From Chloroflexota bacterium (GTDB lineage: Bacteria; Chloroflexota; UBA11872; VXOZ01), in contig OZ244775.1 of the NCBI GenBank assembly GCA_965219505.1, positions 2,750,815 through 2,814,814 of the forward strand: a DNA stretch of 64,000 bases. Direction: 5' to 3'. Positions 7,004 through 54,083 of the stretch are shown here, piece after piece (the first letter of the stretch is position 1; the number at the start of each line of letters is the position of its first letter). Both the position numbers and the translations under genes were made by a program. The notes under the pieces are model-generated. The model had not been told where the DNA came from, did not search any database, and saw only the letters and a list, made by a program, of their open reading frames with translations.

Positions 7004-7243
7004 GTGGCTGTGGGTGCGAAAGCCATTGGTGATGCCTTTCCCACGATGTCGGTTAAGGAGTCATCCCATCCAGGAAGAAGAGCATGAAGCATGACAGTCC
7101 CAGTTTTGGTGAAACCGTGGGCTTCGACCTGGACGATGGAATCGACCATCGCGAGGGCCACGCCCGGTTCCGGTCCTGGACCAGGTTCTCCTGGGAGACC
7201 AGCGTCTTCAACGGGTCACTGAGTAATGATTTCAGTCCCATTG

Positions 7244-7462
7244 GAGACCTTTGCGTAACCCTTGCTGAGGCGAGAAAGTCCCCTCTCCCGGCGGGAGAGG
7301 GTTAGGGTGAGGGGGAATCCCCGCAATCTGGGCTATTTTCACCGATTTTGCACACTTAAGTATAGGTCTTAGAGGTTGAAAGGACGGAATAAGCAGGAAT
7401 CCCCTCACCCCATGGAGAGGGAGTAATTATTGCGCCTCTGGCGGAAGTTACGCAAAGGTCTC
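7244..7462. mobile_element. MITE-like palindromic element, copy 1 (~219 bp) with 16-bp perfect terminal inverted repeats GAGACCTTTGCGTAAC / GTTACGCAAAGGTCTC
   Basis: Second copy at 51917-52149, ~85% identical, with TIRs AGAGACCTTTGCATAAC/GTTACGCAAGGGTCTCT. Internal arms CCCCTCTCCCGGCGGGAGAGGG and GGAATCCCCTCACCCC are mutually complementary. No coding capacity. Confidence 0.7.
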
Positions 7463-13413: not shown

Positions 13414-15003
13414 ATGAGCATCGATACCGGTCTGCTGGCACACTGGAAATTCAACGGCGATTGCCGGGACTCTTCCGACAGCGGCAATCACGGCACGAAT
13501 CGCGGCGCCGATCTCGCGGCTGTGGGTCGGGACGGCAATCCCTATGGCGCAGCGGGCTTTGACGGCCGTACCGCATATGTAGAGGTTCCTATCAGCGACT
13601 CGCTGGCTCTCGTCGGCGGTGACTTCACGCTCTCCGCCTGGGTGGAACTGCCGCCCGACGGCGCCAACCTACACGGCGACATCCTCAGCAAATTCGATCC
13701 TGCCACCCGCACCGGCCTGAACTTCGGTACCTTGAATTACGCCGGAGTCACCGCTGCCCAGGCCCACCATCGCAATCTGCACTTTGGCATCGACGACGGC
13801 CTGCAAGAGCCGTCATGGAGCGACTGCGGCCGACCGGGCAACAATCTGCGCGTCTACTCCCTGGCCGTCTACAACGGCGACCTCTACACCGGCACCTTCG
13901 AATGGGGCGCGGACGAGGCCGGGCACGTGTACCGCTACGCGGGCGGCCAGACGTGGGAAGACTGCGGCAGCCCCGATCAAAGCAATACCGTGGCATCGCT
14001 GGCCGTGTTCAAAGGTGACCTCTATGCCGGTACTTCCCGCTATAAGGCCGGTGGCTCCGCGCTGGAGGATTCGCCGAACAAGCATCCCGGCGGCGCTATT
14101 TACCGCTACACGGGAGATGCCACTTGGGAGTACTGCGGCCGTCTCGAAGGCGCCGACTCCATTGCCGGTATGGCCGTGTACAACGGCGAACTCTACGCCA
14201 TTCCGCTGTACAGCCAGGGCGTCTTTCGCTACGTGGGCGGACAAGAGTGGGAATACTGCGGCACGCCCGGCCGCCGCATGATGGCGATCACCGTCTACAA
14301 GGGACACCTCTATGGCGCGGGCAACGAGGGCGGCGGCGTCTTTCGTTACGACGGCGGCACCCAGTGGACGCCCTGCGGCTTCCAGGAGGGAGTCACCCAG
14401 GTATACTCGTTCGCCGCCTATCAGGGCGAGCTCTACGTCGGCACCTGGCCTAACGGTACCGTCTTCCGTTGGGACGGCAAGGAAACGTGGGAGAGCGTGG
14501 GCCGCCTGGAAGAAGAGAAGGAAGTCATGGCAATGGCGGTCTACAACGGCAAGCTCTACGCGGGCACGTTGCCATTGGCAAACGTCTATCGCTACGAGGG
14601 CGGTACCACCTGGACCAATACGGGCCAATTGGACACCACGCCGGACGTGAAATACCGGCGGGTGTGGTCGATGGCGGTTTTTGAGGGTAAGCTCTTCGGC
14701 GGCACGCTGCCGTCCGGCCGGGTCTATTCCCTGCATGCCGGCGCCAACGTGACGTACGATTTCGCACTAGGCGTAGGTTGGCGCCATCTTGCCGCCGTGC
14801 GGGAAGGGAATCATCTCAGGCTCTACGTCGACGGCGTGCAGGTGGCAGAATCCGCCGACACAGCGCATGTTCCTACCTCCATTGCAAACGACCGTCCGCT
14901 GCGCATTGGGTTCGGCCAGCACGACCACTTCAACGGCAGCATGGCCGACGTGCGCGTGCACGGCCGCGCCCTTAACTCCGACGATATCGCTGCGCTCCAG
15001 TAG
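13414..15003 (+). CDS. Secreted LamG/concanavalin-A-like lectin-fold protein whose jelly-roll is split by seven ~45-aa beta-propeller-like repeats
   Basis: N-terminus (LLAHWKFNGD...GFDGRTAYVEV...DFTLSAWV) and C-terminus (WRHLAAVREGNHLRLYVDGVQVAES...MADVRVHGRALN) together form one LamG_3-type domain. Between them sit seven repeats of h-x-x-h-A-V-Y-x-G-x-L-Y-x-G-T...V-F/Y-R-Y-x-G-G-x-x-W. ATG at 13414 with GAGAGAGAG RBS. Confidence 0.6.
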   Translation: MSIDTGLLAHWKFNGDCRDSSDSGNHGTNRGADLAAVGRDGNPYGAAGFDGRTAYVEVPISDSLALVGGDFTLSAWVELPPDGANLHGDILSKFDPATRTGLNFGTLNYAGVTAAQAHHRNLHFGIDDGLQEPSWSDCGRPGNNLRVYSLAVYNGDLYTGTFEWGADEAGHVYRYAGGQTWEDCGSPDQSNTVASLAVFKGDLYAGTSRYKAGGSALEDSPNKHPGGAIYRYTGDATWEYCGRLEGADSIAGMAVYNGELYAIPLYSQGVFRYVGGQEWEYCGTPGRRMMAITVYKGHLYGAGNEGGGVFRYDGGTQWTPCGFQEGVTQVYSFAAYQGELYVGTWPNGTVFRWDGKETWESVGRLEEEKEVMAMAVYNGKLYAGTLPLANVYRYEGGTTWTNTGQLDTTPDVKYRRVWSMAVFEGKLFGGTLPSGRVYSLHAGANVTYDFALGVGWRHLAAVREGNHLRLYVDGVQVAESADTAHVPTSIANDRPLRIGFGQHDHFNGSMADVRVHGRALNSDDIAALQ

Positions 15004-15257
15004 GCCACATAGACGCCTGCTACTTTCAAGACCCTCGTTGAAATCCGCTCTTATAGAGCGGGTTTCTCCATTTGCACCCTTGACTACACACCGTTAATCG
15101 CGCTAGAATCCGTTTCAAGCCTTCTAGGAGTCGTCAAGGCAGGATTGAACTTCTGGAGAGGTGGAAGTGAGTGCCGCACGGTCGACAGCCACCCCATCTC
15201 GCAAGGCAGTGGTGTGTGTTCGGAATAACGCCTACCAGGCAGGAGGTATCGGTTCTG

Positions 15258-39660: not shown

Positions 39661-40273
39661 GTCTCATAAGTCGACTCGATAAGCAAAATCGTGCTTCGAC
39701 ACGGGCTTCGCGAAGCCCACTCAGCACGAACGGGATTTGCCTTTTCCGTTCCACCCCGTATCGTGTACGGGGCAGGCTCCGAGTACTTCGACAGGCTCAG
39801 CACAGGCTCTGTCGAAGGGTAAGTCTGCACTGAGCAATGCACTTTTGAGACTAGCACCTGAGGAGAGGGCCGAGGTGAGAGGTAATCTTCACCATTACGG
39901 CCTATAGCCGTGCGCTCGTCAGAGATACACAAAGGCATCCTTGGGTGCAAGCCGCCTCATCTAATGTCCGAATTCATCCGACCTCCGCTTGATCGCTGCG
40001 CTCCGCGCGGCTGCACAAGAACGACACAACTTCGTACTCGCGGCGGTTGTAATGGATCAAACATTATGGGTCAAGCTGTCTAGCTCTTGCAACTCCACGA
40101 GTCCGCCTCTCGCATGGTAAAGGATGCGCCGCGTTCAGGGCAACGGGAACATGACACTGGTTTAGTGCTATGCTAGAATCGCGGTTTGGGTGAGGTGAAT
40201 GACTCGCCTTGCGCCAGACTGAAGCGGGCTCTACAAATATCCAGGAAGATGTCGGAAGAAGGAGTGGCTCTTG

Positions 40274-40786
40274 ATGCGGTGGCGTTTGCGCGTTCCCTTG
40301 GCGCTCATTGCGATTGTGCTTTCGTTGACACTGTTCAGCGCATGTGGCGGTGAAGAGGAAGCAACAGCCTGGAGTTGGGATGAAGAACCGACACCAGTTG
40401 TCGAACCGACCGCCGTTGTGGTTGAGGAAGCGTGCGAGCCGATGCCGGAATGCATTAAGGTACCTCCGGGCCTACTAGACAAAGGTAAGGTTGAGAATGG
40501 GATGGGACTATTCGCGGATAAGGGATGCATCGCCTGTCATCAGGTTGAAGAAGACGGCCCCGGCGGCACAATCGGCCCCTTACTCGCCGGCATCGGCGAT
40601 CCCGCTGCGCGACCGCTGCTGGCGGCAAGTACTGGGGACTCCGCAGGTATTCCCAACACGCCGAAGAATATCTGGCGGTGGGTGCAGTTCCCGCAGAAGA
40701 TCAAGCCGGGGACAGAAATGGCGCCCGCAGCCCTTACTCCCGAAGAGGCCGCTGATATTGTGGCCTATCTCAGGACGTTGAAGTAG
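40274..40786 (+). CDS. Class I c-type cytochrome lipoprotein
   Basis: Signal peptide plus LFSACGG lipobox. Single CIACH haem-binding motif with downstream Met. AGGAGTGG RBS. Confidence 0.8.
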   Translation: MRWRLRVPLALIAIVLSLTLFSACGGEEEATAWSWDEEPTPVVEPTAVVVEEACEPMPECIKVPPGLLDKGKVENGMGLFADKGCIACHQVEEDGPGGTIGPLLAGIGDPAARPLLAASTGDSAGIPNTPKNIWRWVQFPQKIKPGTEMAPAALTPEEAADIVAYLRTLK

Positions 40787-40850
40787 CGAGTCAAGCAGCC
40801 TGATTTCGGGCGTCGGGATTCTTTGCGGCAATCTCAGGGAACCGTAGTCG

Positions 40851-41309
40851 ATGCGTAGGCTTCTCCAAATCGCTGCGGGCCCATCTCTCGTCACTCTGCT
40901 GCTTGCTGCACTTACCGGCTGTTTTCCTTGGGATTCTCCGGAGCAGACGACTGCTCAACCCATCGCGAATGGTGGTTCGCGCGCTTCCGCCAAGCCGCTG
41001 CCGACTGTACCGCCGGGGATTCTCGACAAGGGCAGCGCTACTCAGGGCCAAGCGCTCTTCGCGAGCAAGGGATGCACTGCCTGCCACAAGATCGGCGGTG
41101 AAGGCGGCAGCGCCGGCCCTGCCCTGGACGGCATTGGAAATCGGGTGAAACGCCCAACCCTGGCAGGCAACCTTGAGAACACGCCGGGGAACTTGTGGCT
41201 CTGGATCACGGATCCGCAAGCGGTCAAGCGCGGTACTCTCATGGCATCGCAGCCGCTCACTCCTCAAGAAGCCGCAGACCTCGTAGCATACTTGGAGACT
41301 CTGAAGTAG
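40851..41309 (+). CDS. Class I c-type cytochrome lipoprotein (tandem paralog)
   Basis: LTGC lipobox, CTACH haem motif. The C-terminal ...PQEAADLVAYLETLK is nearly identical to the upstream paralog's ...PEEAADIVAYLRTLK. Confidence 0.8.
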   Translation: MRRLLQIAAGPSLVTLLLAALTGCFPWDSPEQTTAQPIANGGSRASAKPLPTVPPGILDKGSATQGQALFASKGCTACHKIGGEGGSAGPALDGIGNRVKRPTLAGNLENTPGNLWLWITDPQAVKRGTLMASQPLTPQEAADLVAYLETLK

Positions 41310-41524
41310 AGAGCTAAGCAGTCGGACGGCTGCCCGTTGAAGAACTTTTGCGATGCCCGTGAAGTCCGTTCGTACTTCGACAAGCTCAGCACGAACGGAC
41401 TTTGGGTGTTGGGACAAGCCGGATTGCCTCGCCGTTCGGTTCACCCTGCGGCCCTTCGACAAGCTCAGGGTGAACGTATGGTCGTGCAGACGATATCTTT
41501 GGAAACAGCCTCTTACATCGAAAC

Positions 41525-42478
41525 TTGAATGATCACAGGGATGGCGAGGTTTCGGCCATCCCTGTGCTGCATTCAAATGGTGAGGTGCGCACATTAGAGA
41601 TCGGAACGCTTGTGGTCATCCATTGCTACGCCAAAATAAATCTGACCCTGGAGATACTGGGAAAACGCGCCGATGGCTACCACGAGGTCCGCTCGGTGAT
41701 GCAGACCGTCGGACTGGCCGACCGACTGGAGGTGACGGCGGCAGAGGAGCTATCATTCACGTGTTCAGACCCGGCGCTGGCAACGCCGGATAATCTCGTC
41801 TATCGCGCCGCGCGGCTGCTGCAATCAGAGTGCGGCGTTAGCGCGGGGGCTGCGCTGCGGCTGGAAAAACGCATTCCGGCAGCCGCCGGTTTGGGCGGCG
41901 GGAGCAGCGACGCGGCGGCAACCATCATCGCCCTCAACCGGCTGTGGAATCTTCAACTATCCTTACCCGATCAAGAGCGGCTGGCAGCCAAGCTGGGTTC
42001 GGACGTGCCTTTCTTCCTAACGGGCGGCACGGCGCTGGCCACCGGCCGGGGCGAGAAGACTACGCCCTTGCCGCCTTTGCCGCCACACTGGGTCGTGCTC
42101 GTGCTGCTGCCATGCGCGCTCAGCACGGCAGCAGTCTACCAAGCCGTAACCCCAGCGGACTACACCTCAGGCGTCGCCACCGCAGACACCGTCGCGGCGG
42201 CACAACACGGAACCCTCTCACCACAGACTCGCTGGCACAACGCCCTCGCCTGCCCCGCCCGCGCGCTAGCATCGGAAATCACAACCGCACAGAATGCCTT
42301 GATCCAGGCTGGCGCTCAACACGCCCACGTCTCCGGCAGCGGCCCGACGGTCTTCACCTGCTGCAGAGACAGGCACACCGCCCACACGCTCGCCGACCGC
42401 CTCCGGGAGTGGGGGCAGACCGCCGAGGTCGTCCCATTCGTCCAGTCCGGTTGCGCTCAGGGCACACGCGGCGCGTGA
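41525..42478 (+). CDS. ispE: 4-(cytidine 5'-diphospho)-2-C-methyl-D-erythritol kinase
   Basis: YAKINLTLEI, GYHEV, and the GHMP-kinase motif PAAAGLGGGSSDAAA. The start may lie ~30 codons downstream of 41525 (GTG near VVIHCYAKINL). Confidence 0.85.
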   Translation: MNDHRDGEVSAIPVLHSNGEVRTLEIGTLVVIHCYAKINLTLEILGKRADGYHEVRSVMQTVGLADRLEVTAAEELSFTCSDPALATPDNLVYRAARLLQSECGVSAGAALRLEKRIPAAAGLGGGSSDAAATIIALNRLWNLQLSLPDQERLAAKLGSDVPFFLTGGTALATGRGEKTTPLPPLPPHWVVLVLLPCALSTAAVYQAVTPADYTSGVATADTVAAAQHGTLSPQTRWHNALACPARALASEITTAQNALIQAGAQHAHVSGSGPTVFTCCRDRHTAHTLADRLREWGQTAEVVPFVQSGCAQGTRGA

Positions 42479-42564
42479 ATGCAGAAGCCAACGGTGCTTG
42501 GGAACTGCCGGTTTCACGCGGCTTGTGGTACATTTGTCGTGAGCAAGTCAGGGAAGCGGGCAAG

Positions 42565-43959
42565 ATGAATGTTATCTGGATAGTTGCCGACACCTTTCGC
42601 AGGGACCACGTTGGCGCCTACGGCAATCCTACAATTCGCACACCTGCTCTCGATGCGCTGGCGGCCGGGTCGGTCAGGTTCGACGGCCACTATGCCGCCG
42701 GTTTCCCCACCATTCCCACGCGCGCCGACCACCACACAGGGCGTTGGACGATGTCCTTTATGGGGTGGGAGCCGCTGCCGGCGGGAGTGAACACTATTGC
42801 GGAAGTGCTGGCGGAGCACGGCTATCACACCGCGGCGTCGGTGGATACCCCCTACTATCTCAGGGACGGCATGAACTACGACCGGGGGTTTCAGTCCTTC
42901 TTCATGAACCGGGGCCAGGACACCATGTGGTCCCTCATCCCCCAGCCCGGCTATCACAATGAAGCCCTCGACGTGCGCGCGGCCTGGCACAACGAAGCGG
43001 ATCGCAATGCCCCGCGGACGTTCATGACCGCCATGCAGTGGTTGGAGCAACACTACAAAGAGGACTTCTTTCTTTACATCGACACCTGGGACCCGCATGA
43101 GCCGTGGGATGCGCCGGCGTACTACACAGAGCTCTACTGGCCGGGATACGACGGCGAGTTGGTACTCCCCTTGTACGGCAACTGGCATGACGCCCCCGGG
43201 TACACCGCAGAGCAAGTCCGGAAAGGTCACGCCACGTATTGCGGTGAGGTCACCATGGTTGACACGTGGCTGGGTTTCTTGCTCAAGGCCGTCGAGAACA
43301 TGGGCCTAACGGACACGACCACCATCATATTTACTACGGACCATGGATTCTGTTTCGGGGAGCATGGCGGCCTCTTCGGCAAGATGAACGCGGACACGTT
43401 CCCGGACGGCAGCCTGCGTCCCTATGGCGAGCCGGGATCAACCTGGACCCACTCTCCTCTCTACGAGGAGCTTGTTCACCTGCCGCTCTTGGTTTGCGTG
43501 CCCGGCATTCGTCCGGGCATATATACGGGCCTAAGTTCCGCAATTGACGTCATGCCCACTGTGCTCGATCTGATGGGTGTGGAGATTCCGCCCTACGTGC
43601 AAGGCAGGTCCCTCGTTTCCAGGATGCAAGATTCTGGGCTGCCCGGACGAGAATATGTCGTCAGCAGCATCCCCTTTGCCAACCCTGGCGATCCGGTGCA
43701 CTCCGTGGACAGCTTGCTCCGCACCCTTTCCGATTATCCGGTGACAACAATTACCGCGGGAGATTGGAGCCTACTTTACAGCCCGGCAGCCGGTCTCTCG
43801 GAACTCTACAATCTCATGTCCGATCCGCAGCAGCTTGAGAACGTCATCGGAACACACGGAGATAATGCCAGGGAAATTCATCGTTTCCTGGTTGATTTCA
43901 TGCATGAAACCAACGTGCCGGAGCGCCTCCTGCAGCCGCGCCTGGAATTGCGTGTGTAG
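42565..43959 (+). CDS. Sulfatase-family (alkaline-phosphatase superfamily) hydrolase/transferase with Thr at the formylglycine position
   Basis: MNVIWIVADTFRRDHVGAYGNPTIRTPALDALAAG..RF...Y......TIPTR...HTGR aligns with the arylsulfatase N-terminus (IVLIxADDLG...CTPSR..LLTGR), but the CxPxR Cys/Ser is Thr (T-I-P-T-R). The 5' part of the 671-aa ORF in the track is out-of-frame overlap with ispE. Confidence 0.7.
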   Translation: MNVIWIVADTFRRDHVGAYGNPTIRTPALDALAAGSVRFDGHYAAGFPTIPTRADHHTGRWTMSFMGWEPLPAGVNTIAEVLAEHGYHTAASVDTPYYLRDGMNYDRGFQSFFMNRGQDTMWSLIPQPGYHNEALDVRAAWHNEADRNAPRTFMTAMQWLEQHYKEDFFLYIDTWDPHEPWDAPAYYTELYWPGYDGELVLPLYGNWHDAPGYTAEQVRKGHATYCGEVTMVDTWLGFLLKAVENMGLTDTTTIIFTTDHGFCFGEHGGLFGKMNADTFPDGSLRPYGEPGSTWTHSPLYEELVHLPLLVCVPGIRPGIYTGLSSAIDVMPTVLDLMGVEIPPYVQGRSLVSRMQDSGLPGREYVVSSIPFANPGDPVHSVDSLLRTLSDYPVTTITAGDWSLLYSPAAGLSELYNLMSDPQQLENVIGTHGDNAREIHRFLVDFMHETNVPERLLQPRLELRV

Positions 43960-44133
43960 CTGCCCGAGAGATCGGACCTCAAGCAATCCCGGACCTGCCT
44001 GGGAAGATTGAGTGTCGGGTGGGGTCGCTCCCGCAATGAGACTGCCACGCCGCCGGGCGGCCGTGGCTAGCCTTACCGCTCGCGAGGGCCTGCCGACCGG
44101 CCAGCAACGCCCGAACGCAACTATAATTACAGC

Positions 44134-45687
44134 ATGAGCAAGAGATACGATCACATAATCGTTGGGGCAGGTTCGGCCGGTGCGGTCTTGGCGGCCCGCT
44201 TGACCGAAGACCCGCACCGGTCGGTGCTACTGCTGGAAGCCGGAAAGGACTATCCTTCAGTGGATCGGACGCCGGATCCGCTGTTGTATGTCTACGGTAC
44301 TAAGAAGTCGGTATGGGACAGCGAACACATTTGGAAGTTCCGCGCCAGGGCGACGGACGCAGCCGAGATAGATGTCCCGCGCGGCAAGGTTGTCGGTGGC
44401 TCCAGCGCCGTCAACGACGCGCAGTTTCTGCGGGCAATGCCGGAGGATTTCGACCGCTGGGCGTCGTGGGGGAATTCCGAGTGGGAGTTCAAGAAGGTCC
44501 TGCCCTACCTCAAGAAGCTGGAAGCGGACCAAGACAATTTGCACAGCGATCTCCATGGCGCAGACGGTCCCATGTATTTTCATCGGTTTACGCCGGGCGA
44601 ATGGAGTTGGCAGGCCCAGGCTTTCTATGCGGCCTGCCGCGACGCCGGTTTCCCCGACTGTCCCGACCACAATCATCCCAACGCCACCGGCGTAGGGCCG
44701 CTGGCATTCAACATCGCGGGCCGCACGCGGGTGAGCACTGCCTTCGCCTACCTTAACGATGCGCGCGCGCGTCCGGGGCTGACAATCAGACCCCGCTGCC
44801 TCGTTAACCGCGTCATATTTGCAGGCGAGCGCGCGGTAGGACTGGACGTTATCAGCGGAAATGGGTCGTCTGCCGTCTACGGCGGCGAGATCATTCTCTG
44901 TGCCGGCGCCATCGGCTCGCCGCACATCCTGGCGCTTTCCGGTATTGGACCGGCGGCACAGTTGCGGCAGGTGGGGATTCCCATAGTGCAAGACCTCCCC
45001 GGCGTCGGCCAAAACCTCCGCGACCATCCGGACGTGCCCATGGCCTGGCGCACGCGCGCGGGCTTTCGCTTGTACACCGATCAGGTCGCAACCGGCATGG
45101 TCACGCTGCGATATACGGCCTCGGGCTCGCCTTTTAAGAACGACCTGGTCATTTACATGGGCAACTACGCGGCGGCACGGCCCATGCGAGGTGCGGACCA
45201 TCAAAAGCCGGTGGGCATAGGGGTGAGCCAGTGCCTTTACTTGGCCTTGAGCCAGGGCGAACTCCGCATCCAATCGGACGACCCGAGGCAGGCGCCGTAT
45301 CTCGACTTCAACCTGCTGGACGACCCCTACGATCGTTCACGGCTCCGCGAAAGCATCAGAACGTGCGCCGACCTGTTCACGCATGCGTCCTTCGGTGAGA
45401 TAATCGATGAGCGGATCGCGCCCTCAGACGAAGTCTTGGATGACGACGATGCCTTGGACTCCTGGATGCAGCGCGAGGTGGTAACTGCCCACCACGTATC
45501 GAGCACGTGCAAAATGGGGCCCGCAAACGACCCAATGGCTGTGGTGGGCCAATACGGCAAGGTGCACGGCGTCGAGGGACTGCGTATCATTGACGCATCC
45601 ATCATGCCCGATACGGTACGGGCGAACCTCAACCATACGGTGATTGCAATGGCGGAGAAGGTGGCCGACTTCATCAAAGCAAGTTGA
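44134..45687 (+). CDS. GMC-family FAD-dependent oxidoreductase (choline dehydrogenase-like)
   Basis: YDHIIVGAGSAGAVLAARLTED N-terminal FAD motif. GMC_oxred_N and C blocks (GGSSAVN, active-site His region near the C-terminus). Confidence 0.85.
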   Translation: MSKRYDHIIVGAGSAGAVLAARLTEDPHRSVLLLEAGKDYPSVDRTPDPLLYVYGTKKSVWDSEHIWKFRARATDAAEIDVPRGKVVGGSSAVNDAQFLRAMPEDFDRWASWGNSEWEFKKVLPYLKKLEADQDNLHSDLHGADGPMYFHRFTPGEWSWQAQAFYAACRDAGFPDCPDHNHPNATGVGPLAFNIAGRTRVSTAFAYLNDARARPGLTIRPRCLVNRVIFAGERAVGLDVISGNGSSAVYGGEIILCAGAIGSPHILALSGIGPAAQLRQVGIPIVQDLPGVGQNLRDHPDVPMAWRTRAGFRLYTDQVATGMVTLRYTASGSPFKNDLVIYMGNYAAARPMRGADHQKPVGIGVSQCLYLALSQGELRIQSDDPRQAPYLDFNLLDDPYDRSRLRESIRTCADLFTHASFGEIIDERIAPSDEVLDDDDALDSWMQREVVTAHHVSSTCKMGPANDPMAVVGQYGKVHGVEGLRIIDASIMPDTVRANLNHTVIAMAEKVADFIKAS

Positions 45688-45875
45688 CCGCATTTCGGGG
45701 TCCGGCATGTCTCAATACGCGAGAACCATATAATTCAGGACTGCTGCGACCGCTAGGGCCGCTGGTTTCCGGTGGGACGAATTGCGGGAGCAGCGACTTG
45801 CCTGCGGCAGCAATGACCGCGTTCGGGGCACTGCGTCGCAATTGGGAAATGCAGCGCAGACCACGGCACGCGGAT

Positions 45876-46090
45876 TGCTCCGCCCCGCCCGCGCTCTAGC
45901 GCTGGAATCCACAACCGCATAAACCGCGCTGCTCCAGGACGGCGCCCCACACGCCCACGTCTCCGGCAGCGGCCCCACGGTTGTTGCCGTCTGTCGAAAG
46001 GAGGCTAAGGCACTCACGTTTGCCAAACGCCTCCAGGAGCAAGCATTCGCCTTGGTGGCAGTCGCCCCGTTCGTGCCAGCAGGCTAGGCG
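45876..46090 (+). pseudogene. Degenerate duplicate of the 3' end of ispE (~215 bp, ~75% identical to 42248-42470), with in-frame stops
   Basis: CCGCCCCGCCCGCGCTCTAGCGCTGGAATCCACAACCGCA...CACGCCCACGTCTCCGGCAGCGGCCCCACGGT... parallels the ispE codons for ...ACPARALASEITTAQ...AHVSGSGPTVFTC.... It contains TAG/TAA in the ispE frame. Confidence 0.75.
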
Positions 46091-46233
46091 CGCGAACAAC
46101 GCGGCCACTTGGGCAAACAGCTAAGTGGGAAGTCAGACCAAGCCCTGTGGGCGAACACTGCTTTCTTTCGTGTCATTGACTGCCGTAGTTCTTTAGGTGG
46201 AACTCAATACATCTTGCGTCCGTCCGTGTTGCG

Positions 46234-48621
46234 TCATTGTATTCCTAGTACCGGATGGAATGCTGGACCTATTGTGTATTCTTCACTCCGATTTTCACGG
46301 GAAGCAATTACCCTAGCGAAATTCCTCAAAGTACGACGATCTTCTTCATGGTCTGCCATTCTGAAGCCGTTCGCAGTCTCGATGCCTAGAAAATTGATAT
46401 CGCAAAGAAGATCAATATAGGAGTCCATGTCCTTTTCTTTGACTCCTGCCAAAGCGAACCGGGATTCGATCTCCTCTCTCTTGAACTTACTGTTTCGACC
46501 TGCAAACTCGTATAGCACTTCTTCAAGCTTACCCTTACTTGGATCGTCCTCATTGAGAACAGATTCAAAGGCGCGTTGTGAGTACTGTTCTCTAGCTGTC
46601 ATGATGTCTTCTGGCAAGACCCTATCGTGACCACGGTTAATTGCGCTGTTCACAGCCAATTTCGACAAGTCGATAAGGTCACGTGGTCGAGGTAGGACAC
46701 TCCTCAACATGAAGTCTGCGCATTCAATGCCATTCACACTCTCTGGGAAAAATGCGGACCATACTTCTTTAGGCGTGACTTGCCTAGATGCACGGTACCT
46801 CATCCTCTCATCTAACACCCTTAGCAGTAACTCGCGGTCGCTCCACGTGACTCTCTCAATTGGAAGCTTATCTTGTTCTGGCAGCCTGTGCCTAATGAAC
46901 GCAAAGATGTCACTCCGCAAAACAACAACTATCCTCGCGTCTACAGGCTTTTGACTGCTGCTAGATTTTCCAAACTCCTTTGGCACCGACTGGACAACAT
47001 CCAATAGACCTCCTATTAATTCCGCCAACTGAACGATATGCTCTCCAGGTGCCCACGGTCCATCTAGACCATCAATTAGCACAGTTAGTCTGCGTTTGCC
47101 TGACAACACATTACCAAGGTCGTTGCGAAGGCGGCTTATGATCAAGTCATGTAGTTCTTCACTAATTCTCCGCCGCTTTTCGCCCGCGTCAGCAATGCCA
47201 CCAATGCCCTTTAGCGAGGACAGTGCCCGTTCTATTCGCTCTGAAAACGGTGGACTAAGAATATGCGACTTACTCTCATAGTAGTCCAAGAACGCATCTT
47301 CATCGGTTGTTCGATCTAGGTGGGCCGGGCGGTCTAGAATCTGTTGCTTTAGGGTTGTGGCAATCTCACTATAGATGAGAAACTTCCAGAGGCTCTCAAT
47401 AAGAAAACCTCTCTCAGAGCGTTCTTGAAGCTCCTTTAAAACCCGAATTAAACCGTGAGTCTCATAACCAACTGGTTTCAGAACCGTTAAGTGATTATCT
47501 GATGTGTTGCTAATCTGGCTTGCGATAGCATAGAGAATTGCCGTCTTTCCCGTACCCCTTCGACCCAAAAGGATCGTGCACTGATTTTCTACTGCGCGAT
47601 TGTAGGAGGCAGTTCTTACAAAATACTCGTGAAGGTCGTCCGCTTCCAGCTCAGCCACGATATCCCCAAGAAAGAGCGTACGGAGGCTAAGTTGCCCTAG
47701 AGACTGAACTTGTGCCTTCCCACGACGCGATCTGAGGTCGGCCAGGTCTACGGTTACTTCGCTAAGCCAATTATTGACTCGTGTCACACACTCTCTTGCT
47801 GTGTCATGGATTTGCAACCATCTTCCATAGTCCGCTGGAGGTTTATACGGGGCATGAGCTAGAATGATCGTCGGCTTTTTAAGGCCAAGCGCCAAACCAG
47901 CTATCACAGAAGCCTTTAGGTTGTGGCTGTTGTTGTAGACCTGATCGTTACTCAAGAAGTGAACGGCAATGGCGTGTGCCGTGAGGAAATGTTCTGCATA
48001 CCACTCCAGCGATTGAGACGGAAACTCTATAGGATCGTCAATCAATAGAGATTGACCAAAGACTGAGCGTTCAAAGGCTTCGTGAGTTGAGATTACGCTA
48101 TCCGTATTCAGCGGAGGCTTCACATAAACCAATTTGAACTGTTCAGGCCGGGAAGTGTGAGGTTGAAGTCGACTATCCAAAAAGGTTTGTTCTAGGTTGT
48201 TCCACGGGCTCTCCTGTAAGATGGCTTGAGAAAGGCCTGCATGGTTGTTGTATTCCAAATACCCCATATTGAGTAGATTCTGGTATATGCGACTGTAGCG
48301 GCTTTGCGCGTTCAGTATGCCGGGATTTACGGAAGCGAGAACTCTTTTGAATCTTGCTATCGCATACCCAAGTTCGAAGCTTACATTTAAGTTTGGATAG
48401 GTGAGGTCGCAGGCGAAGATTTGGTGCCTATCAATTTGCCTCAAGATCGTAGTTTCAAGGGGTCGTCCTGATACACTCAAATCTCTCCAACGTTTGAATT
48501 GGACATCGTTCTTCTTGAGAACTCCTCTACTTTCAAGTGTCCTTATACATTGCTTGATCGTCTCACCAAGATCGGCTGGCTTATCCGGATATGCGTAGAG
48601 TGCTCTCACTCCCCTTGACAT
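46234..48621 (-). CDS. NACHT/STAND-like P-loop NTPase with two tandem N-terminal nucleoside-2-deoxyribosyltransferase/TIR-like (SLOG-like) Rossmann domains; candidate bacterial NLR-like antiphage defence protein
   Basis: 795 aa in a ~45-50% GC patch. Domain 1 has ...IDRHQIFACDLTYPNLNVSFELGYAIARFKRVL and domain 2 has ...NSHNLKASVIAGLALGLKKPTIIL; both match the D...(N/G)xxxE.GyA.a.gKp signature of NDT/TIR-like folds. Walker A LLGRRGTGKTAIL and Walker B RLTVLIDGLDGPW (hhhhDGhD as in NACHT). GGAGG RBS. Confidence 0.6.
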   Translation of the reverse strand: MSRGVRALYAYPDKPADLGETIKQCIRTLESRGVLKKNDVQFKRWRDLSVSGRPLETTILRQIDRHQIFACDLTYPNLNVSFELGYAIARFKRVLASVNPGILNAQSRYSRIYQNLLNMGYLEYNNHAGLSQAILQESPWNNLEQTFLDSRLQPHTSRPEQFKLVYVKPPLNTDSVISTHEAFERSVFGQSLLIDDPIEFPSQSLEWYAEHFLTAHAIAVHFLSNDQVYNNSHNLKASVIAGLALGLKKPTIILAHAPYKPPADYGRWLQIHDTARECVTRVNNWLSEVTVDLADLRSRRGKAQVQSLGQLSLRTLFLGDIVAELEADDLHEYFVRTASYNRAVENQCTILLGRRGTGKTAILYAIASQISNTSDNHLTVLKPVGYETHGLIRVLKELQERSERGFLIESLWKFLIYSEIATTLKQQILDRPAHLDRTTDEDAFLDYYESKSHILSPPFSERIERALSSLKGIGGIADAGEKRRRISEELHDLIISRLRNDLGNVLSGKRRLTVLIDGLDGPWAPGEHIVQLAELIGGLLDVVQSVPKEFGKSSSSQKPVDARIVVVLRSDIFAFIRHRLPEQDKLPIERVTWSDRELLLRVLDERMRYRASRQVTPKEVWSAFFPESVNGIECADFMLRSVLPRPRDLIDLSKLAVNSAINRGHDRVLPEDIMTAREQYSQRAFESVLNEDDPSKGKLEEVLYEFAGRNSKFKREEIESRFALAGVKEKDMDSYIDLLCDINFLGIETANGFRMADHEEDRRTLRNFARVIASRENRSEEYTIGPAFHPVLGIQ

Positions 48622-49114
48622 TTCCCTTGACCTCCAACTGGAGTTACTAATTCAGAGTTGTCTAGGCTTTCTATGTCATAAACTCTGAAGCCAGTTCACG
48701 AATTCTAGAACTAAGCAGATTTGAGGTGATTTTTCACGATAGTAGCTGACAAGTATGGTACACGAGCGGGGCGTAGAGCGCATTGATCTAGAATTACTGT
48801 ACGTGCGCTGAAAACAAGACTTGTAGGACCCCGCGCACCGGGGGGCTCAGTGCTTGTCGTGGGAAGGGGCCACTAGGAATAGATAGTTGCACTACAAATG
48901 GAATAAACATCAAATTCGAGCTGAGTTCAGCTTACACTACCTAGCCAAGCCCTCCATTAGGCTGAACCCCAGCGCAGCCTTGAATTAACCAGTGTAACTG
49001 CGCCCTGAAGAGCTTGCTGGTTTGCGGCGGAGTTCCCTCAACGAGGAATTGCAACCACGGAGCAGTCGGGAAATTGGCCCGCGCCAACGCCCTAAGCGAC
49101 GGAGACATAGTTGA

Positions 49115-49765
49115 GTGATGATTACAGCCGTTCACCCTTTGCGACTAGCCGCAGCTGCCTTGATCGCCGGACTCTCCTTTCTCTTAATCGTGGGTGAGGT
49201 GCGTGCTTGCTCGTGCGGGGATACGCCTTCCCCATCCGTGGCATTGGCGCAGAGCGCAAAAGTGTTCTCCGGTAAAGTCGTGCACATAAGCGATGACGGC
49301 GGCACGCGGAGAGAGCCCGCTCTGCTCAGCGGTTACATCTTGGTAGAGTTTGAGGTCTACGCAGTCTGGAAAGGCCCGGCCTATGCCACCATGTTTGTCG
49401 AAACGGCATGGTGGAGCGGCAGTTGCGGTGTAGAGTTCTATCTGGGACAAGAATGGCTGGTCTACTCCTATGACGGTGAAACCACGCACCCTTGCAGCCG
49501 CACACGTCCCTTGGAACTGGCGCAGGTAGACATTGACGAACTTGGCGAGGGCCAAGTACCTGTGCCGGGAACAATCGAGCCCTATCAACAATCCGGCGAC
49601 CGGATCGAGCGAACAAGCACGCAGGCCGCCGAGGCCGACGCGCCTACGCCTGAGGAAAGCCCTTGGCAGAATGTGATTCCGGCGTGGCTGAGTTTCACGT
49701 TCCTCATAGTTTTGGTGGTAGCGGTGCTCGGCTGGGCGCTGCGTGGGACCAGCCAGAAGAGCTAG
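49115..49765 (+). CDS. TIMP-like (NTR/netrin-like OB-fold) secreted protein with C-terminal transmembrane anchor
   Basis: Signal peptide ending VRA|CSCG. The mature N-terminus CSCGDTPSPSVALAQSAKVFSGKVV parallels TIMP-2 [24 protein letters not shown]. Further matches: EVYAVWKGP to KQIKMFKGP, SGSCGVEFYLGQEWLVYS to [20 protein letters not shown], and a conserved late Cys. Hydrophobic C-terminal helix. Confidence 0.55.
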   Translation: MMITAVHPLRLAAAALIAGLSFLLIVGEVRACSCGDTPSPSVALAQSAKVFSGKVVHISDDGGTRREPALLSGYILVEFEVYAVWKGPAYATMFVETAWWSGSCGVEFYLGQEWLVYSYDGETTHPCSRTRPLELAQVDIDELGEGQVPVPGTIEPYQQSGDRIERTSTQAAEADAPTPEESPWQNVIPAWLSFTFLIVLVVAVLGWALRGTSQKS

Positions 49766-51176: not shown

Positions 51177-51252
<76 letters not shown>

Positions 51253-51319
51253 TAGAGATGGCTTTCAGATTCTATTCCGACCAATTCAGCCGCGCAGAGC
51301 GGGGATTGAATTGAACGCA

Positions 51320-51790
51320 ATGGACGAAAAGGCGTCCGAGAATTCAACGAAGGTCGCAAAGAAGGCCGTTGCCATGGGGTCTGGCGCGAAGCCGGTCCTC
51401 CTCTCAGGCGGCAACCCTCAGATCGCGAAGGCCGACGGCGACGCTCCGGTGCAGGCCTACATAGAGGCCATGCCGGGCTGGAGGAGCGACCTTGGACGCC
51501 GCCTCGACGCGCTCATTGTACGCGAAGTGCCCAACGTGCGCAAAGCCGTGCGGTGGAATTCGCCTTGGTATGGCATCAAGGGGCAGGGATGGTTCGTGAG
51601 CTATCACGTCTTTACCCGCTATGTCAAGTTGACATTCATACGTGGTGCGTCGTTGGAACCCGTTCCACCCGGCTCAGGGAAAGACAAGGATGCGCGCTGG
51701 ATCGACATCTACGAGGGCGAATTCGACGAAGAGCAAATGGCCGAATGGGTCCGGCAAGCGGCGGTCCTGCCCGGTTGGGATGGGTTCTGA
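51320..51790 (+). CDS. DUF1801 (YdhG-like) domain protein
   Basis: Start MDEKAS.... WNSPWYGIKGQGWFVSYHVFTRYVKLTFIRG matches the DUF1801 core. The upstream part of the 190-aa ORF in the track overlaps the tRNA and is not coding. Confidence 0.65.
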   Translation: MDEKASENSTKVAKKAVAMGSGAKPVLLSGGNPQIAKADGDAPVQAYIEAMPGWRSDLGRRLDALIVREVPNVRKAVRWNSPWYGIKGQGWFVSYHVFTRYVKLTFIRGASLEPVPPGSGKDKDARWIDIYEGEFDEEQMAEWVRQAAVLPGWDGF

Positions 51791-52340: not shown

Positions 52341-54083
52341 ATGGCTGCAGTGAACGTCAACGACAACGTCCGCTACGAACCTGATGAGAACCCTCCCCGG
52401 TTAGTTACCATTGGCTCCGGCGTTCAGGCTGCCATCCTAATCCTGGCCCCGGTAGTGTTGACCGTCGTCATCGTGTCTCGCATTGCCGGGCAGTCGGTAG
52501 GCTTCATGACCTGGGCCGTCTTTGCAGCGTTGCTCGTTAGCGGATCCACGACGATACTCCAAGCGGTTCGCGTCGGACGGTTTGGCTCGGGGCACGTGCT
52601 GATGATGGGCACGTCGGGGGCTTTCATTGCCGTCTGTGTCGCGGCCCTCAAGCTGGCGGGCCCGGCCACAATGGCGAGCCTGATCGTTATTTCATCGCTA
52701 TTCCAGTTTCTGTTGGCGGCACGCCTCTCGCTGCTACGCCGCATCTTTACACCGATCGTCACCGGTACAGTGATCATGCTGATCGCGGCCACGGTAATGC
52801 CCATCATCTTCGATTCGCTCACTGACGTGCCTGAAGGGTCACCACAGGCGGCTGCACCGGTGGCGGCCCTGGTTACGCTGGTTATCGTGGCGGCGATGGT
52901 GGTACGCGCGCCGCCGGCCTGGCGGCTGTGGTCGCCAATCATCGCCATTGCCGCAGGTTGTCTCGTCTCCATTCCTTTTGGCATCTACGAACTTCAACAA
53001 GTGCTGGATGCGCCGTGGATCGGCGTTCCTTTTGACTCTTGGCCGGGATTTGATATTACTCCCGGTGTTGAGTTTTGGGCGCTCCTGCCCGCGTTCATCG
53101 TGGTTACCTTGGTTGGGGCTATCGAGACCATTGGAGACGGTGTGGCGATCCAGCGCGTCTCCCGCCGCAATCCCCGCGCTACGGACTTTCGCGTCGTGCA
53201 AGGCGCGCTGAATGCCGACGGCGTGGGCAATTTCCTCTCCGGCATACTGGCGACGGTGCCGAATACCACCTATTCATCCAGCATCTCTCTTGCCGAGGTC
53301 ACAGGGGTCGCCGCTAGGCGCGTGGGCGTGGTTATCGGTGTCATATTCGTTGTACTTGCGTTCTTCCCCAAAGTTGCCGCCTTGCTGATTGCTATTCCCG
53401 CTCCCGTGGCGGCTGCGTATATCACTGTGCTTGTCGTATTGCTCTTTGTGCAGGGCATGAGAATTGTCATCCAGGACGGCATGGACCACCGCAAGGCTGT
53501 AGTTGTCGGTCTGTCATTTTGGGTTGGCGCGGGTTTCCAGAGTGGATGGATCTTTCCGGAGTTGCTGGGCGAAGGCTTCTTGGGCGTGCTGCTGAGCAAC
53601 GGCATGACCGCCGGCGCTATCGTGGCGATTATTGTGATGGTGTTCATCGAGCTAACGCGCCCGCGGCGCAGGCGGTTACAGGTTGCTTTGGAGAGCGACG
53701 CCCTGCCGAAGATCGAGCAGTTCCTGCTGGCGTTTGCGGCAAAGCGCAAATGGAACGACGCCTCAGCGGAACGGCTGACCTCTGCGGGCGAAGAGACGCT
53801 CGCAATCCTGTTGCAGGAAAGTGATGGGGCCGAGGCTACTGATACGGCGCGGCGCTTGACCATAAACGCCCGCATTGAGGGCGAATCGGCGGAATTGGAA
53901 TTCGTGACGTCACTGGAAGGTGAGAACGTGGAGGACTACCTGGTGCACCTCAATGAGCTTCCGCCCGTGCCGGACGAACACGAAGTGTCGTTCCGCCTGC
54001 TCTGGCACTATGCGTCCTCCGTGCGGCATCAGAAGTATCACGGGTTGGACATTATTACGGTGCAGGTTGAAGGCTCGCGCTAG
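52341..54083 (+). CDS. Nucleobase:cation symporter-2 (NCS2/xanthine-uracil permease) family transporter with a ~140-aa C-terminal cytoplasmic extension
   Basis: LSGILATVPNTTYSSSISLAEVTGVAARRV matches the NCS2 signature (xTPNTTYxENIG...TxV). 12-14 predicted TM helices. Hydrophilic tail after ~aa 440. GGAGCGAGG RBS. Confidence 0.8.
   Translation: MAAVNVNDNVRYEPDENPPRLVTIGSGVQAAILILAPVVLTVVIVSRIAGQSVGFMTWAVFAALLVSGSTTILQAVRVGRFGSGHVLMMGTSGAFIAVCVAALKLAGPATMASLIVISSLFQFLLAARLSLLRRIFTPIVTGTVIMLIAATVMPIIFDSLTDVPEGSPQAAAPVAALVTLVIVAAMVVRAPPAWRLWSPIIAIAAGCLVSIPFGIYELQQVLDAPWIGVPFDSWPGFDITPGVEFWALLPAFIVVTLVGAIETIGDGVAIQRVSRRNPRATDFRVVQGALNADGVGNFLSGILATVPNTTYSSSISLAEVTGVAARRVGVVIGVIFVVLAFFPKVAALLIAIPAPVAAAYITVLVVLLFVQGMRIVIQDGMDHRKAVVVGLSFWVGAGFQSGWIFPELLGEGFLGVLLSNGMTAGAIVAIIVMVFIELTRPRRRRLQVALESDALPKIEQFLLAFAAKRKWNDASAERLTSAGEETLAILLQESDGAEATDTARRLTINARIEGESAELEFVTSLEGENVEDYLVHLNELPPVPDEHEVSFRLLWHYASSVRHQKYHGLDIITVQVEGSR

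Follow-up and report, generated by a model that had tools for sequence, protein, structure and literature searches.

How did a decayed second copy of the 3' end of ispE, the gene for 4-diphosphocytidyl-2-C-methyl-D-erythritol (CDP-ME) kinase, come to stand behind two further genes downstream of the intact ispE in a Chloroflexota genome? The stretch analysed here, referred to as the window, comprises 64,000 nt of contig OZ244775.1 from a Chloroflexota bacterium; coordinates count from window position 1, and ispE codons are numbered from position 41597. A preliminary description of this DNA had taken the copy as the trace of an insertion or recombination event that duplicated the 3' end of its target. 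Our comparison with related genomes suggests that the copy is the displaced and decaying 3' half of ispE, left behind by an old recombination event that supplied a replacement.

Intact ispE and its relic

The features needed for the argument are the following.

41597 to 42478, plus strand: intact ispE (copy A), conserved protein start near 41597-41615
42044 to 42478, plus strand: segment of copy A with a second copy downstream, from codon ~150 (GRGE motif) to the stop codon
42479 to 42564, plus strand: spacer between ispE and the sulfatase gene, unrelated to the native spacer downstream of ispE
42565 to 43959, plus strand: sulfatase-family gene (464 aa), first cargo gene
44134 to 45687, plus strand: gene of a GMC-family flavin adenine dinucleotide (FAD) oxidoreductase (517 aa), second cargo gene
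45688 to 45822, plus strand: spacer downstream of the GMC gene, ending at an illegitimate junction with copy B
45823 to 46110, plus strand: copy B, ispE pseudogene relic with codons ~150-152, an in-frame deletion of ~153-199, then codons ~200-294 and a tail
45920 to 45922, plus strand: first in-frame stop of copy B, TAA, where ispE has a Gln codon
46085 to 46087, plus strand: second in-frame stop of copy B, TAG, opposite TGC (Cys) in copy A, a codon that is TGG (Trp) in the ispE of most relatives
49115 to 49765, plus strand: g49115, native neighbour of ispE on the right; its conserved, clade-specific product is Cys-rich and apparently has a signal peptide or membrane anchor

Copy A is a working gene. 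Its product scores 240.6 bits against the ispE equivalog model TIGR00154 (cut-off 138.7) and carries both the N-terminal and the C-terminal GHMP domain (GHMP_kinases_N, PF00288; GHMP_kinases_C, PF08544; Pfam), which places it among the CDP-ME kinases of the GHMP kinase superfamily. Copy B fails as a functional IspE: two in-frame stops interrupt it, residues ~150-152 and ~200-294 are all that it retains, and it possesses neither a start nor the N-terminal domain.

The similarity of the two copies is found at the nucleotide as well as at the codon level. Alignment of 42240-42480 with 45860-46095 by MAFFT gave a mean column identity of 79%; the blastn core of 100 nt (42252-42351 versus 45882-45981) is 82% identical (E = 8e-20), and the ungapped repeat 42252-42409 / 45882-46039 shows 73% identity. 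According to blastn, the region 45882-45981, located 3.6 kb downstream of ispE, is the sole other ispE-like stretch in the window. A DNA profile built from eight ispE genes matched 45880-46100 in nhmmer (E = 1.8e-34), while hmmsearch with the IspE protein profile against the translated stretch 45839-46105 recovered IspE residues 203-292 (E = 1.2e-23). The correspondence is collinear in one frame, copy B reading ...RPARALALESTTA, a stop, TALLQDGAPHAHVSGSGPTVVAVCRKEAKALTFAKRLQEQAFALVAVAPFVPAG and the second stop where ispE reads ...CPARALASEITTAQNALIQAGAQHAHVSGSGPTVFTCCRDRHTAHTLADRLREWGQTAEVVPFVQSG; it is a codon-by-codon correspondence and not a mere likeness of low-complexity GC-rich DNA, although the content of guanine plus cytosine (GC) of copy B amounts to 0.66. 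Apart from the two stops, the lesions in the window are the in-frame loss of ~47 codons and a one-codon insertion, and ispE-like sequence runs ~20 nt past the TAG at 46085-46087.

Taken together, 45823-46110 is almost certainly a decayed, non-functional remnant of the 3' half of ispE. Both the diverged copy and its in-frame stops had been described correctly. The extent given at that time, 45876-46090, covers the best-preserved part; the relic itself spans 45823-46110, and the copy found in L083 together with a junction common to eight loci (see below) shows an ancestral unit of ~435 bp instead of the last ~215-230 bp.

A further candidate piece at 45768-45857, resembling IspE residues 96-121 (GLGGGSSD...ALNRLW), was rejected. 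Its score of 31 lies within the range of shuffled sequences (mean 24.5, maximum 38), its E-values are 0.26-3, and it is contradicted by the junction at codon 150 in the eight loci.

Upstream, the mechanically called open reading frame (ORF) of ispE begins already at 41525. The additional 24 codons (41525-41596; LNDHRDGEVSAIPVLH...) are conserved in the relatives L003, L005 and L006, yet with a stop codon there, so that this extension is better understood as a conserved non-coding leader than as protein. A 23-nt direct repeat (41375-41397 / 41454-41476) lies just upstream of the leader, and no Rfam family matched either the leader or the repeat.

The locus in related genomes

A genome scan with IspE yielded seven close relatives (L001-L006 and L058), all of them Chloroflexota metagenome-assembled genomes with IspE identities of 72-83%. 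A metagenome scan anchored on g49115 contributed L081, with a single 2-kb contig recovered, and L082-L094 came from a search with this clade-specific neighbour followed by contig look-ups. The contig L091 (1.2 kb) is uninformative, and that of L094 begins inside the gene upstream of GMC; an exact-protein look-up with the window GMC protein gave no record. Every spacer between GMC and g49115 was searched with the ispE DNA and protein profiles. Sixteen of the 24 related Chloroflexota loci have the GMC gene, mostly together with the sulfatase gene, and a relic occurs at the same place in 10-11 of these 16. The arrangements are as follows.

L005, L006 and L089: ispE directly followed by g49115, spacer of 261-267 bp
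L058 and L088: ispE directly followed by g49115, ispE tail fused to the g49115 start
Window, L001, L002, L082-L087, L090, L092 and L093 (plus L094): ispE, sulfatase, GMC, g49115
L004 and L081: GMC only
L003: sulfatase cut by an insertion sequence (IS)

The insert-free order, which the preliminary description had suggested to look for, thus exists in five relatives. The relics found in the insert-bearing loci differ widely in what they have kept.

L083 (9336-9772): codons 150-294 in a single frame, no internal stops, own stop codon; nhmmer E = 4e-102, protein profile 214.6 bits
Window: codons ~150-152, then ~200-294; E = 1.8e-34
L003: codons 225-288, with a frameshift; E = 1.4e-31
L001, L082, L085, L087 and L092: codons 147/150-171 with a common TAG stop, mutual identity 85-100%; E = 1e-8 to 5e-5
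L086: same allele as the preceding five, recognised by eye, nhmmer without detection
L002: codons 187-203; E = 8e-4
L084: codons 226-283, doubtful; E about 1

In eight loci (the window at 45823, L001, L082, L083, L085, L086, L087 and L092) the left junction is the same: DNA from downstream of GMC, ...GGAATGACCGCGT, is followed immediately by TCGGGGC..., corresponding to G-R-G in the GRGE motif (codon ~150). On the right, the similarity between copies A and B terminates at the stop codon, and the sequences past the stop are unrelated. The 226 bp after the L083 copy B are 78% identical over the full length to the spacer between ispE and g49115 of the insert-free L005 (E = 3e-48), and the ispE tail of L005 is collinear with the tail of copy B. 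Copy B thus keeps the original right-hand context of ispE. The uninterrupted copy in L083, the common left junction and the end of similarity at the stop codon all show that a ~435-bp 3' half was duplicated, and the ancestral duplicate extended from codon ~150 to the stop, being 5'-truncated from the start. Judged from these loci, the ancestral order was ispE(1-294) - spacer - sulfatase - GMC - spacer - ispE(150-294) - native spacer - g49115.

We also considered a link between the type of the ispE tail and the insert, with a 'D-type' tail (C-x-D-R/K...) going with the insert and a 'Q-type' tail (CQEEAAAR) with relics and insert-free genomes. This idea was dropped with 17 genomes, since Q-type tails are present in the insert-bearing L082, L083, L084, L087 and L090, which refutes it.

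The inserted gene pair and its age

Between the copies there are exactly two genes, as noted before: Pfam identifies a sulfatase (Sulfatase, E = 8e-40) and a GMC oxidoreductase (GMC_oxred_N and GMC_oxred_C), and a Pfam search for mobile genes in 42479-45822 found only these two. The window sulfatase is 92% identical to the proteins of L001 and L002 and stays below the curated cut-offs for arylsulfatase and choline-sulfatase; the GMC protein is 80-83% identical to those of L001-L004 and stays below the cut-offs for choline dehydrogenase and MftG. A betC/betA-like choline-O-sulfate module as an identity for the sulfatase-GMC pair was rejected on this basis (TIGR03417, 98 bits versus 433; TIGR01810, 372 versus 732). 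The spacer 42479-42564 has 61 bp in common with L001 and L002 at 88% identity, and no similarity was found to the DNA after copy B or after ispE of insert-free genomes. The spacer 45688-45822 is identical in 93 of 97 aligned bases to the sister locus L082 and 74% identical to L001; it is also present in L003. The gene pair has a GC content of 0.59-0.62, like the window average of 0.59.

A tree of five flanking proteins divides the relatives into the following groups, with bootstrap values of 92-100% for the supported splits.

Window, L082, L001, L085, L087, L002, L083 and L084: relics present
L086, L005 and L006: relics present
L003 and L089: relics present
L090, L004, L058 and L088: outside the three relic-bearing groups

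Apart from exceptions such as L085, the GMC tree agrees largely with the flank tree. At four-fold degenerate sites the window and L003 are 53-69% identical, which can be compared with 65% from relic to relic and 61-73% from relic to intact gene. The divergence of the relics seems to fit neutral decay since about the split of these species. Because the GC content of the gene pair matches the flanks, the proteins are 81-92% identical to their orthologues in L001 and L002 and the trees largely agree, the pair is not regarded as a recent foreign insert. The whole arrangement is ancient, mostly vertically inherited and common to at least three species-level clades, and not a recent island. The earlier proposal of an insertion or recombination that duplicated the target's 3' end was hence right in kind, but the event is neither specific to this genome nor a recent arrival of foreign genes.

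Several loci show further changes in or beside the gene pair. About 370 bp of additional DNA lie between the ispE stop and the sulfatase gene in L001 (10880-11253) and also in L002, L082-L085, L087 and L092; they are missing in the window, L086, L090 and L093, where this spacer measures 84-87 bp. In L003 (11032-13454) the sulfatase is cut after 79 codons by an IS encoding a DDE transposase (DUF772 and DDE_Tnp_1_6), and L084 contains related IS copies at 6320-7270 and 14025-15011; the IS copies of these two genomes are later, separate insertions. GMC is called as two separate genes in L082 (8228-9822) and L092 (8422-9775), owing either to a frameshift or to an assembly error. The split genes could mean that the cargo decays in some lineages.

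Proposed origin of the second 3' half

We propose that in an ancestor the order ispE - native spacer - g49115 became ispE(1-294) - sulfatase - GMC - ispE(150-294) - native spacer - g49115 by a single recombination. At one end, homology within the 3' half of ispE would have anchored the exchange; at the other end, DNA from downstream of GMC would have been joined illegitimately to codon ~150. Homology-facilitated illegitimate recombination of a linear fragment may have been the route, or equally a Campbell-type integration of a circularised fragment, the incoming DNA in each case coming from a relative with sulfatase and GMC genes after ispE. The fragment would have brought a working 3' half and displaced the resident one downstream, and the essential gene would have remained intact because the incoming DNA supplied that working half. 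Copy B is without function and decayed neutrally, with lineage-specific deletions. The direct repeat formed by the two copies, together with the flanking genes, may later have been reused for homologous exchange, by which the copy B of L083 was probably refreshed, and such exchange probably also accounts for the loss or spread of the gene pair in some lineages. Later, in the window, the native spacer directly after copy B gave way to an island with a Sll1717-family ATPase.

The scar has the shape that such an event should leave. One junction is abrupt and identical in the descendants (TCGGGGC in eight loci), and the other boundary lies at the end of the homology, the stop codon, with the native flank kept by copy B as seen from the L083 and L005 spacers. 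The stop codon is the point at which a donor with ispE followed by sulfatase and a recipient with ispE followed by g49115 diverge, which makes this boundary a signature of homology-anchored recombination. Furthermore, neither an integrase nor an excisionase or phage gene was found between the two copies in the 16 insert-bearing loci, and in 41300-49300 there is no transposase gene, no terminal inverted repeats and no short target duplications; the tRNA scan of the window found a sole tRNA gene, at 51177. Seen in this light, we consider this specific mechanism, a single event with one homologous and one illegitimate side, moderately probable.

A number of observations weigh against it. No donor genome or circular intermediate is known, which leaves the direction of the event unproven; a search for the donor arrangement found none, and of the 72 remaining ispE loci L052 alone has a GMC homologue in the vicinity, with 42% identity and on the opposite strand. 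In L090, L093, L094, L004 and L081 no relic is present, and GMC, accompanied by the sulfatase or alone, lies 72-89 bp from g49115; this relic-free clade represents either a deletion of copy B and its spacer or the ancestral state with copy B added later. The relics are not clearly nearer to the ispE of insert-free genomes than to the copy A genes, so that phylogeny is silent on which 3' half is native. Moreover, exchange between lineages is widespread at this locus (L001 versus L002, L083 versus L084, the GMC gene of L085; see below), which weakens any tree-based counts of gain and loss. Finally, the loss of the pair in L058 and L088 was not due to recombination between copies A and B but to a plain deletion, which fused the ispE tail to the g49115 start.

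Some of these observations lead to the explanation that runs in the reverse direction. Here the relic-free order ispE - sulfatase - GMC - g49115 would be ancestral, copy A wholly native and copy B imported: a fragment of an insert-free genome, consisting of ispE from codon ~150 to the stop, the native spacer and the first part of g49115, would have been pasted behind GMC, with a homologous right crossover in g49115 and an illegitimate left join. Such an import would yield the same illegitimate junction as that observed. L090, L093 and L094, with both genes, no relic and a spacer of 72-75 bp, agree with it, and the copy B, spacer and g49115 5' end of L083, which resemble the insert-free (type-0, L005-like) haplotype, indicate that imports of this kind occur. 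The explanation requires, on the other hand, a pre-existing insert-free genome with a native spacer of 261-267 bp. This spacer is without counterpart in the relic-free insert-bearing genomes, which makes the insert-free order the simpler ancestral state. In addition, the left junction is common to several clades, and the case of L083 is hence better read as the refreshing of an existing copy B than as a new formation. All in all, we regard the reverse direction as rather unlikely.

Improbable, in our estimation, is a local origin in two steps, in which slippage or unequal crossing-over first duplicated the 3' half of ispE in tandem and the sulfatase-GMC pair was inserted between the copies later. 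The final order would be the same, and local duplications are common. It needs, however, two independent events at one point; a tandem duplication is not expected to end at the stop codon or to give unrelated spacers after each copy, and no locus with the intermediate state (two copies without cargo) was found.

A site-specific integrative element of the e14/icd type would have used an attachment (att) site carrying a replacement ispE 3' end and would later have lost its integrase and most of its genes. The geometry is indeed like that of icd - e14 - icdC, where cargo lies between an intact gene and the displaced pseudogene of its C-terminal part (PMC13626634), and the duplicate of the target's 3' end likewise lies at the far side of the inserted DNA. 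Yet no integrase or recombinase was found inside the insert, neither in the window nor in any of the insert-bearing relatives. The edges share no short identical att core, the left edge of copy B has no counterpart at the stop codon of copy A, and the best-conserved and only long identical run is internal, namely the stretch coding for the HAHVSGSGPTV motif. The cargo consists of two conserved, housekeeping-like enzymes with host GC content, and a duplicate of ~435 bp far exceeds typical att overlaps. An element of this type is therefore very improbable.

That the similarity is due to chance in GC-rich DNA, or that a functional element (small gene, regulatory RNA, promoter or terminator) merely resembles ispE, is practically dismissed: the GC content of 0.66 and the strikingly conserved HAHVSGSGPTV-coding core in the relics would agree with it, but the E-values of 1e-20 to 1e-102 with codon collinearity in many genomes, the stops, frameshifts and deletions that differ by lineage, the complete loss of the relic in several lineages, a divergence like that of neutral sites, an Rfam search with nothing relevant for copy B, and a promoter and terminator scan with no such sites at copy B stand against it, and chance similarity in particular can be regarded as already refuted.

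Later exchange at the locus

In three clades of the flank tree, insert-bearing and insert-free genomes are sisters, which means that the gene pair was repeatedly lost or exchanged. One trace is found in L083: its copy B is far too intact for its age, and from the tail of copy B through the spacer to the start of g49115 it resembles L005, which disagrees with the flank tree. Probably this copy was refreshed by homologous exchange with the functional ispE of an insert-free relative. In L003 both copies carry the lineage-specific states LMQA and LANR, a sign of intragenomic conversion. As far as codon ~165 the ispE of L089 matches the copy A of its sister at 95-99%, whereas its final 70 codons reach no more than 53-68%; this pattern fits a crossover inside the repeat, with allele import as the alternative. 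Furthermore, the GMC gene of L085 groups with that of L086, against the flank tree.

Two other differences were tested as conversion events and rejected as such. Over the locus L001 and L002 show 92-99% identity, which falls to 72-85% within ispE codons ~94-280. Conversion of copy A by copy B does not explain this tract, because its left end mismatches the edge of copy B and neither genome is asymmetrically distant; import of an allele from another lineage is at least as likely. Likewise, L083 and L084 are 100% identical through ispE codon 128 and then show patchy differences, and these were not accepted as conversion from the L083 copy B, since the site states do not follow copy B.

It is conceivable, though unlikely, that the half-copy together with ispE and g49115 serves as a standing homology anchor, i.e. 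an integrase-free exchange point at which homologous recombination alone allows the sulfatase-GMC pair to be lost, regained or swapped from one species to another, with single-gene defence-like cargo (Sll1717 ATPase, GmrSD-like nucleases, Pyr_excise) repeatedly slotted in beside the relic.

Comparison with known systems

The closest known likeness is the icd/icdC pair flanking e14 (and phage 21), where inserted DNA likewise separates an intact essential-pathway gene from a displaced pseudogene fragment of its C-terminal part. In E. coli K-12 the insert is lost when gene and fragment recombine, and the product is a chimeric gene that still functions, as stated in PMC13626634, which cites Hill et al. 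1989 (PMC210168) for it. The icd/icdC case (PMC13626634) provides an experimental precedent for the loss of an insert by recombination between a gene and its displaced fragment. However, e14 is prophage-like, has its own site-specific recombination and excises on SOS induction, whereas the ispE locus is without a recombinase or phage gene, contains two conserved metabolic genes and a repeat of ~435 bp, and is ancient and fixed across species.

Homology-facilitated illegitimate recombination is said to go back to work by de Vries & Wackernagel 2002, Prudhomme et al. 2002 and Meier & Wackernagel 2003. In this process one end is anchored by homology, the other is joined illegitimately, and foreign genes are added beside the anchor, as described in two sources (PMC3240628, PMC5361080). 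The ispE locus resembles it in having one diffuse homologous side and one abrupt junction in eight loci. It differs in that the process was defined experimentally in naturally transformable bacteria, while the ispE case is read from the scar alone, and a Campbell-type circle leaves the same scar.

C-terminal displacement in rhs loci, contact-dependent inhibition (CDI) loci and type VI secretion system (T6SS) loci was reportedly described by Jackson et al. 2009 and Kirchberger et al. 2017. The old 3' half of ispE would similarly have been pushed downstream as a 5'-truncated fragment. In the effector loci, an incoming module brings a new 3' end plus downstream genes and the old 3' end becomes a 5'-truncated orphan (PMC5361080). 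Those are polymorphic toxin systems with functionally differing 3' ends and recurrent arrays, whereas the ispE locus concerns a housekeeping kinase with equivalent 3' halves and a single displacement.

The locus reveals no new mechanism or system. It offers a natural example of how an essential gene can survive an insertion into its own 3' half, in which the replacement end arrives and the old end stays as a fossil. Ten or eleven genomes keep different pieces of this fossil, which makes it possible to reconstruct the ancestral structure, its junctions and its decay; such a reconstruction is rarely possible for uncultivated Chloroflexota, and the differential decay over about ten genomes is instructive without being surprising. 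For annotation purposes, 45823-46110 should be marked as an ispE pseudogene fragment and not as a gene.

The low-GC island and the right-hand neighbourhood

To the right of the relic, two further features are distinguished.

46111 to 49050, no strand: low-GC island (GC 0.476), replacing the native spacer; right border approximate, within 49050-49100
46234 to 48621, minus strand: gene of a Sll1717-family P-loop ATPase (795 aa), single gene of the island (NCBIfam NF047389, 253.7 bits, cut-off 75)

Since the GC content drops from 0.66 to 0.476 and the native spacer is gone after copy B, the relic forms the left border of the island, as already described. On neither side of the island was a trace of a native-spacer homologue found. 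The island gene had been taken for a NACHT gene and this assignment has to be replaced by the one given above: there is no match to NACHT (PF05729) in Pfam, where the protein gives only weak matches to ORC-CDC6-like and AAA_16. Its N-terminal ~319 aa, for which Pfam has no match at E <= 1, could be an effector domain.

Only the ATPase coding part of the island has homologues elsewhere, with 64-68% DNA identity: in the same slot in L084 (7428-9635), and on the other side of g49115 in L083 (10851-13238) and L058 (11717-14101). The upstream slot is occupied by a GmrSD_N/DUF262 (HEC-05-like) gene in L002 (14653-16551) and L003 (15427-17433), and the slot downstream of g49115 by a Pyr_excise gene in L093 (10682-11071). 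The slots flanking g49115 look like a small hotspot for defence-like single-gene cargo without a recombinase. The protein of g49115 itself was assigned to no Pfam or NCBIfam family.

Further to the right, the tRNA-Val(CAC) gene (51177-51252) overlaps the start of a mechanical ORF (51218-51790, DUF1801), the real start of which is probably further downstream. The xanthine/uracil permease gene (window 52341-54083) is tandemly duplicated in L058 (15894-19626) and L088 (12234-15974). On the other side of the locus, upstream of ispE, tandem cytochrome c genes (window 40271-41309) vary in number from one to three among the relatives, and a minus-strand ORF of 267 aa (40791-41594), which overlaps them, is probably spurious.

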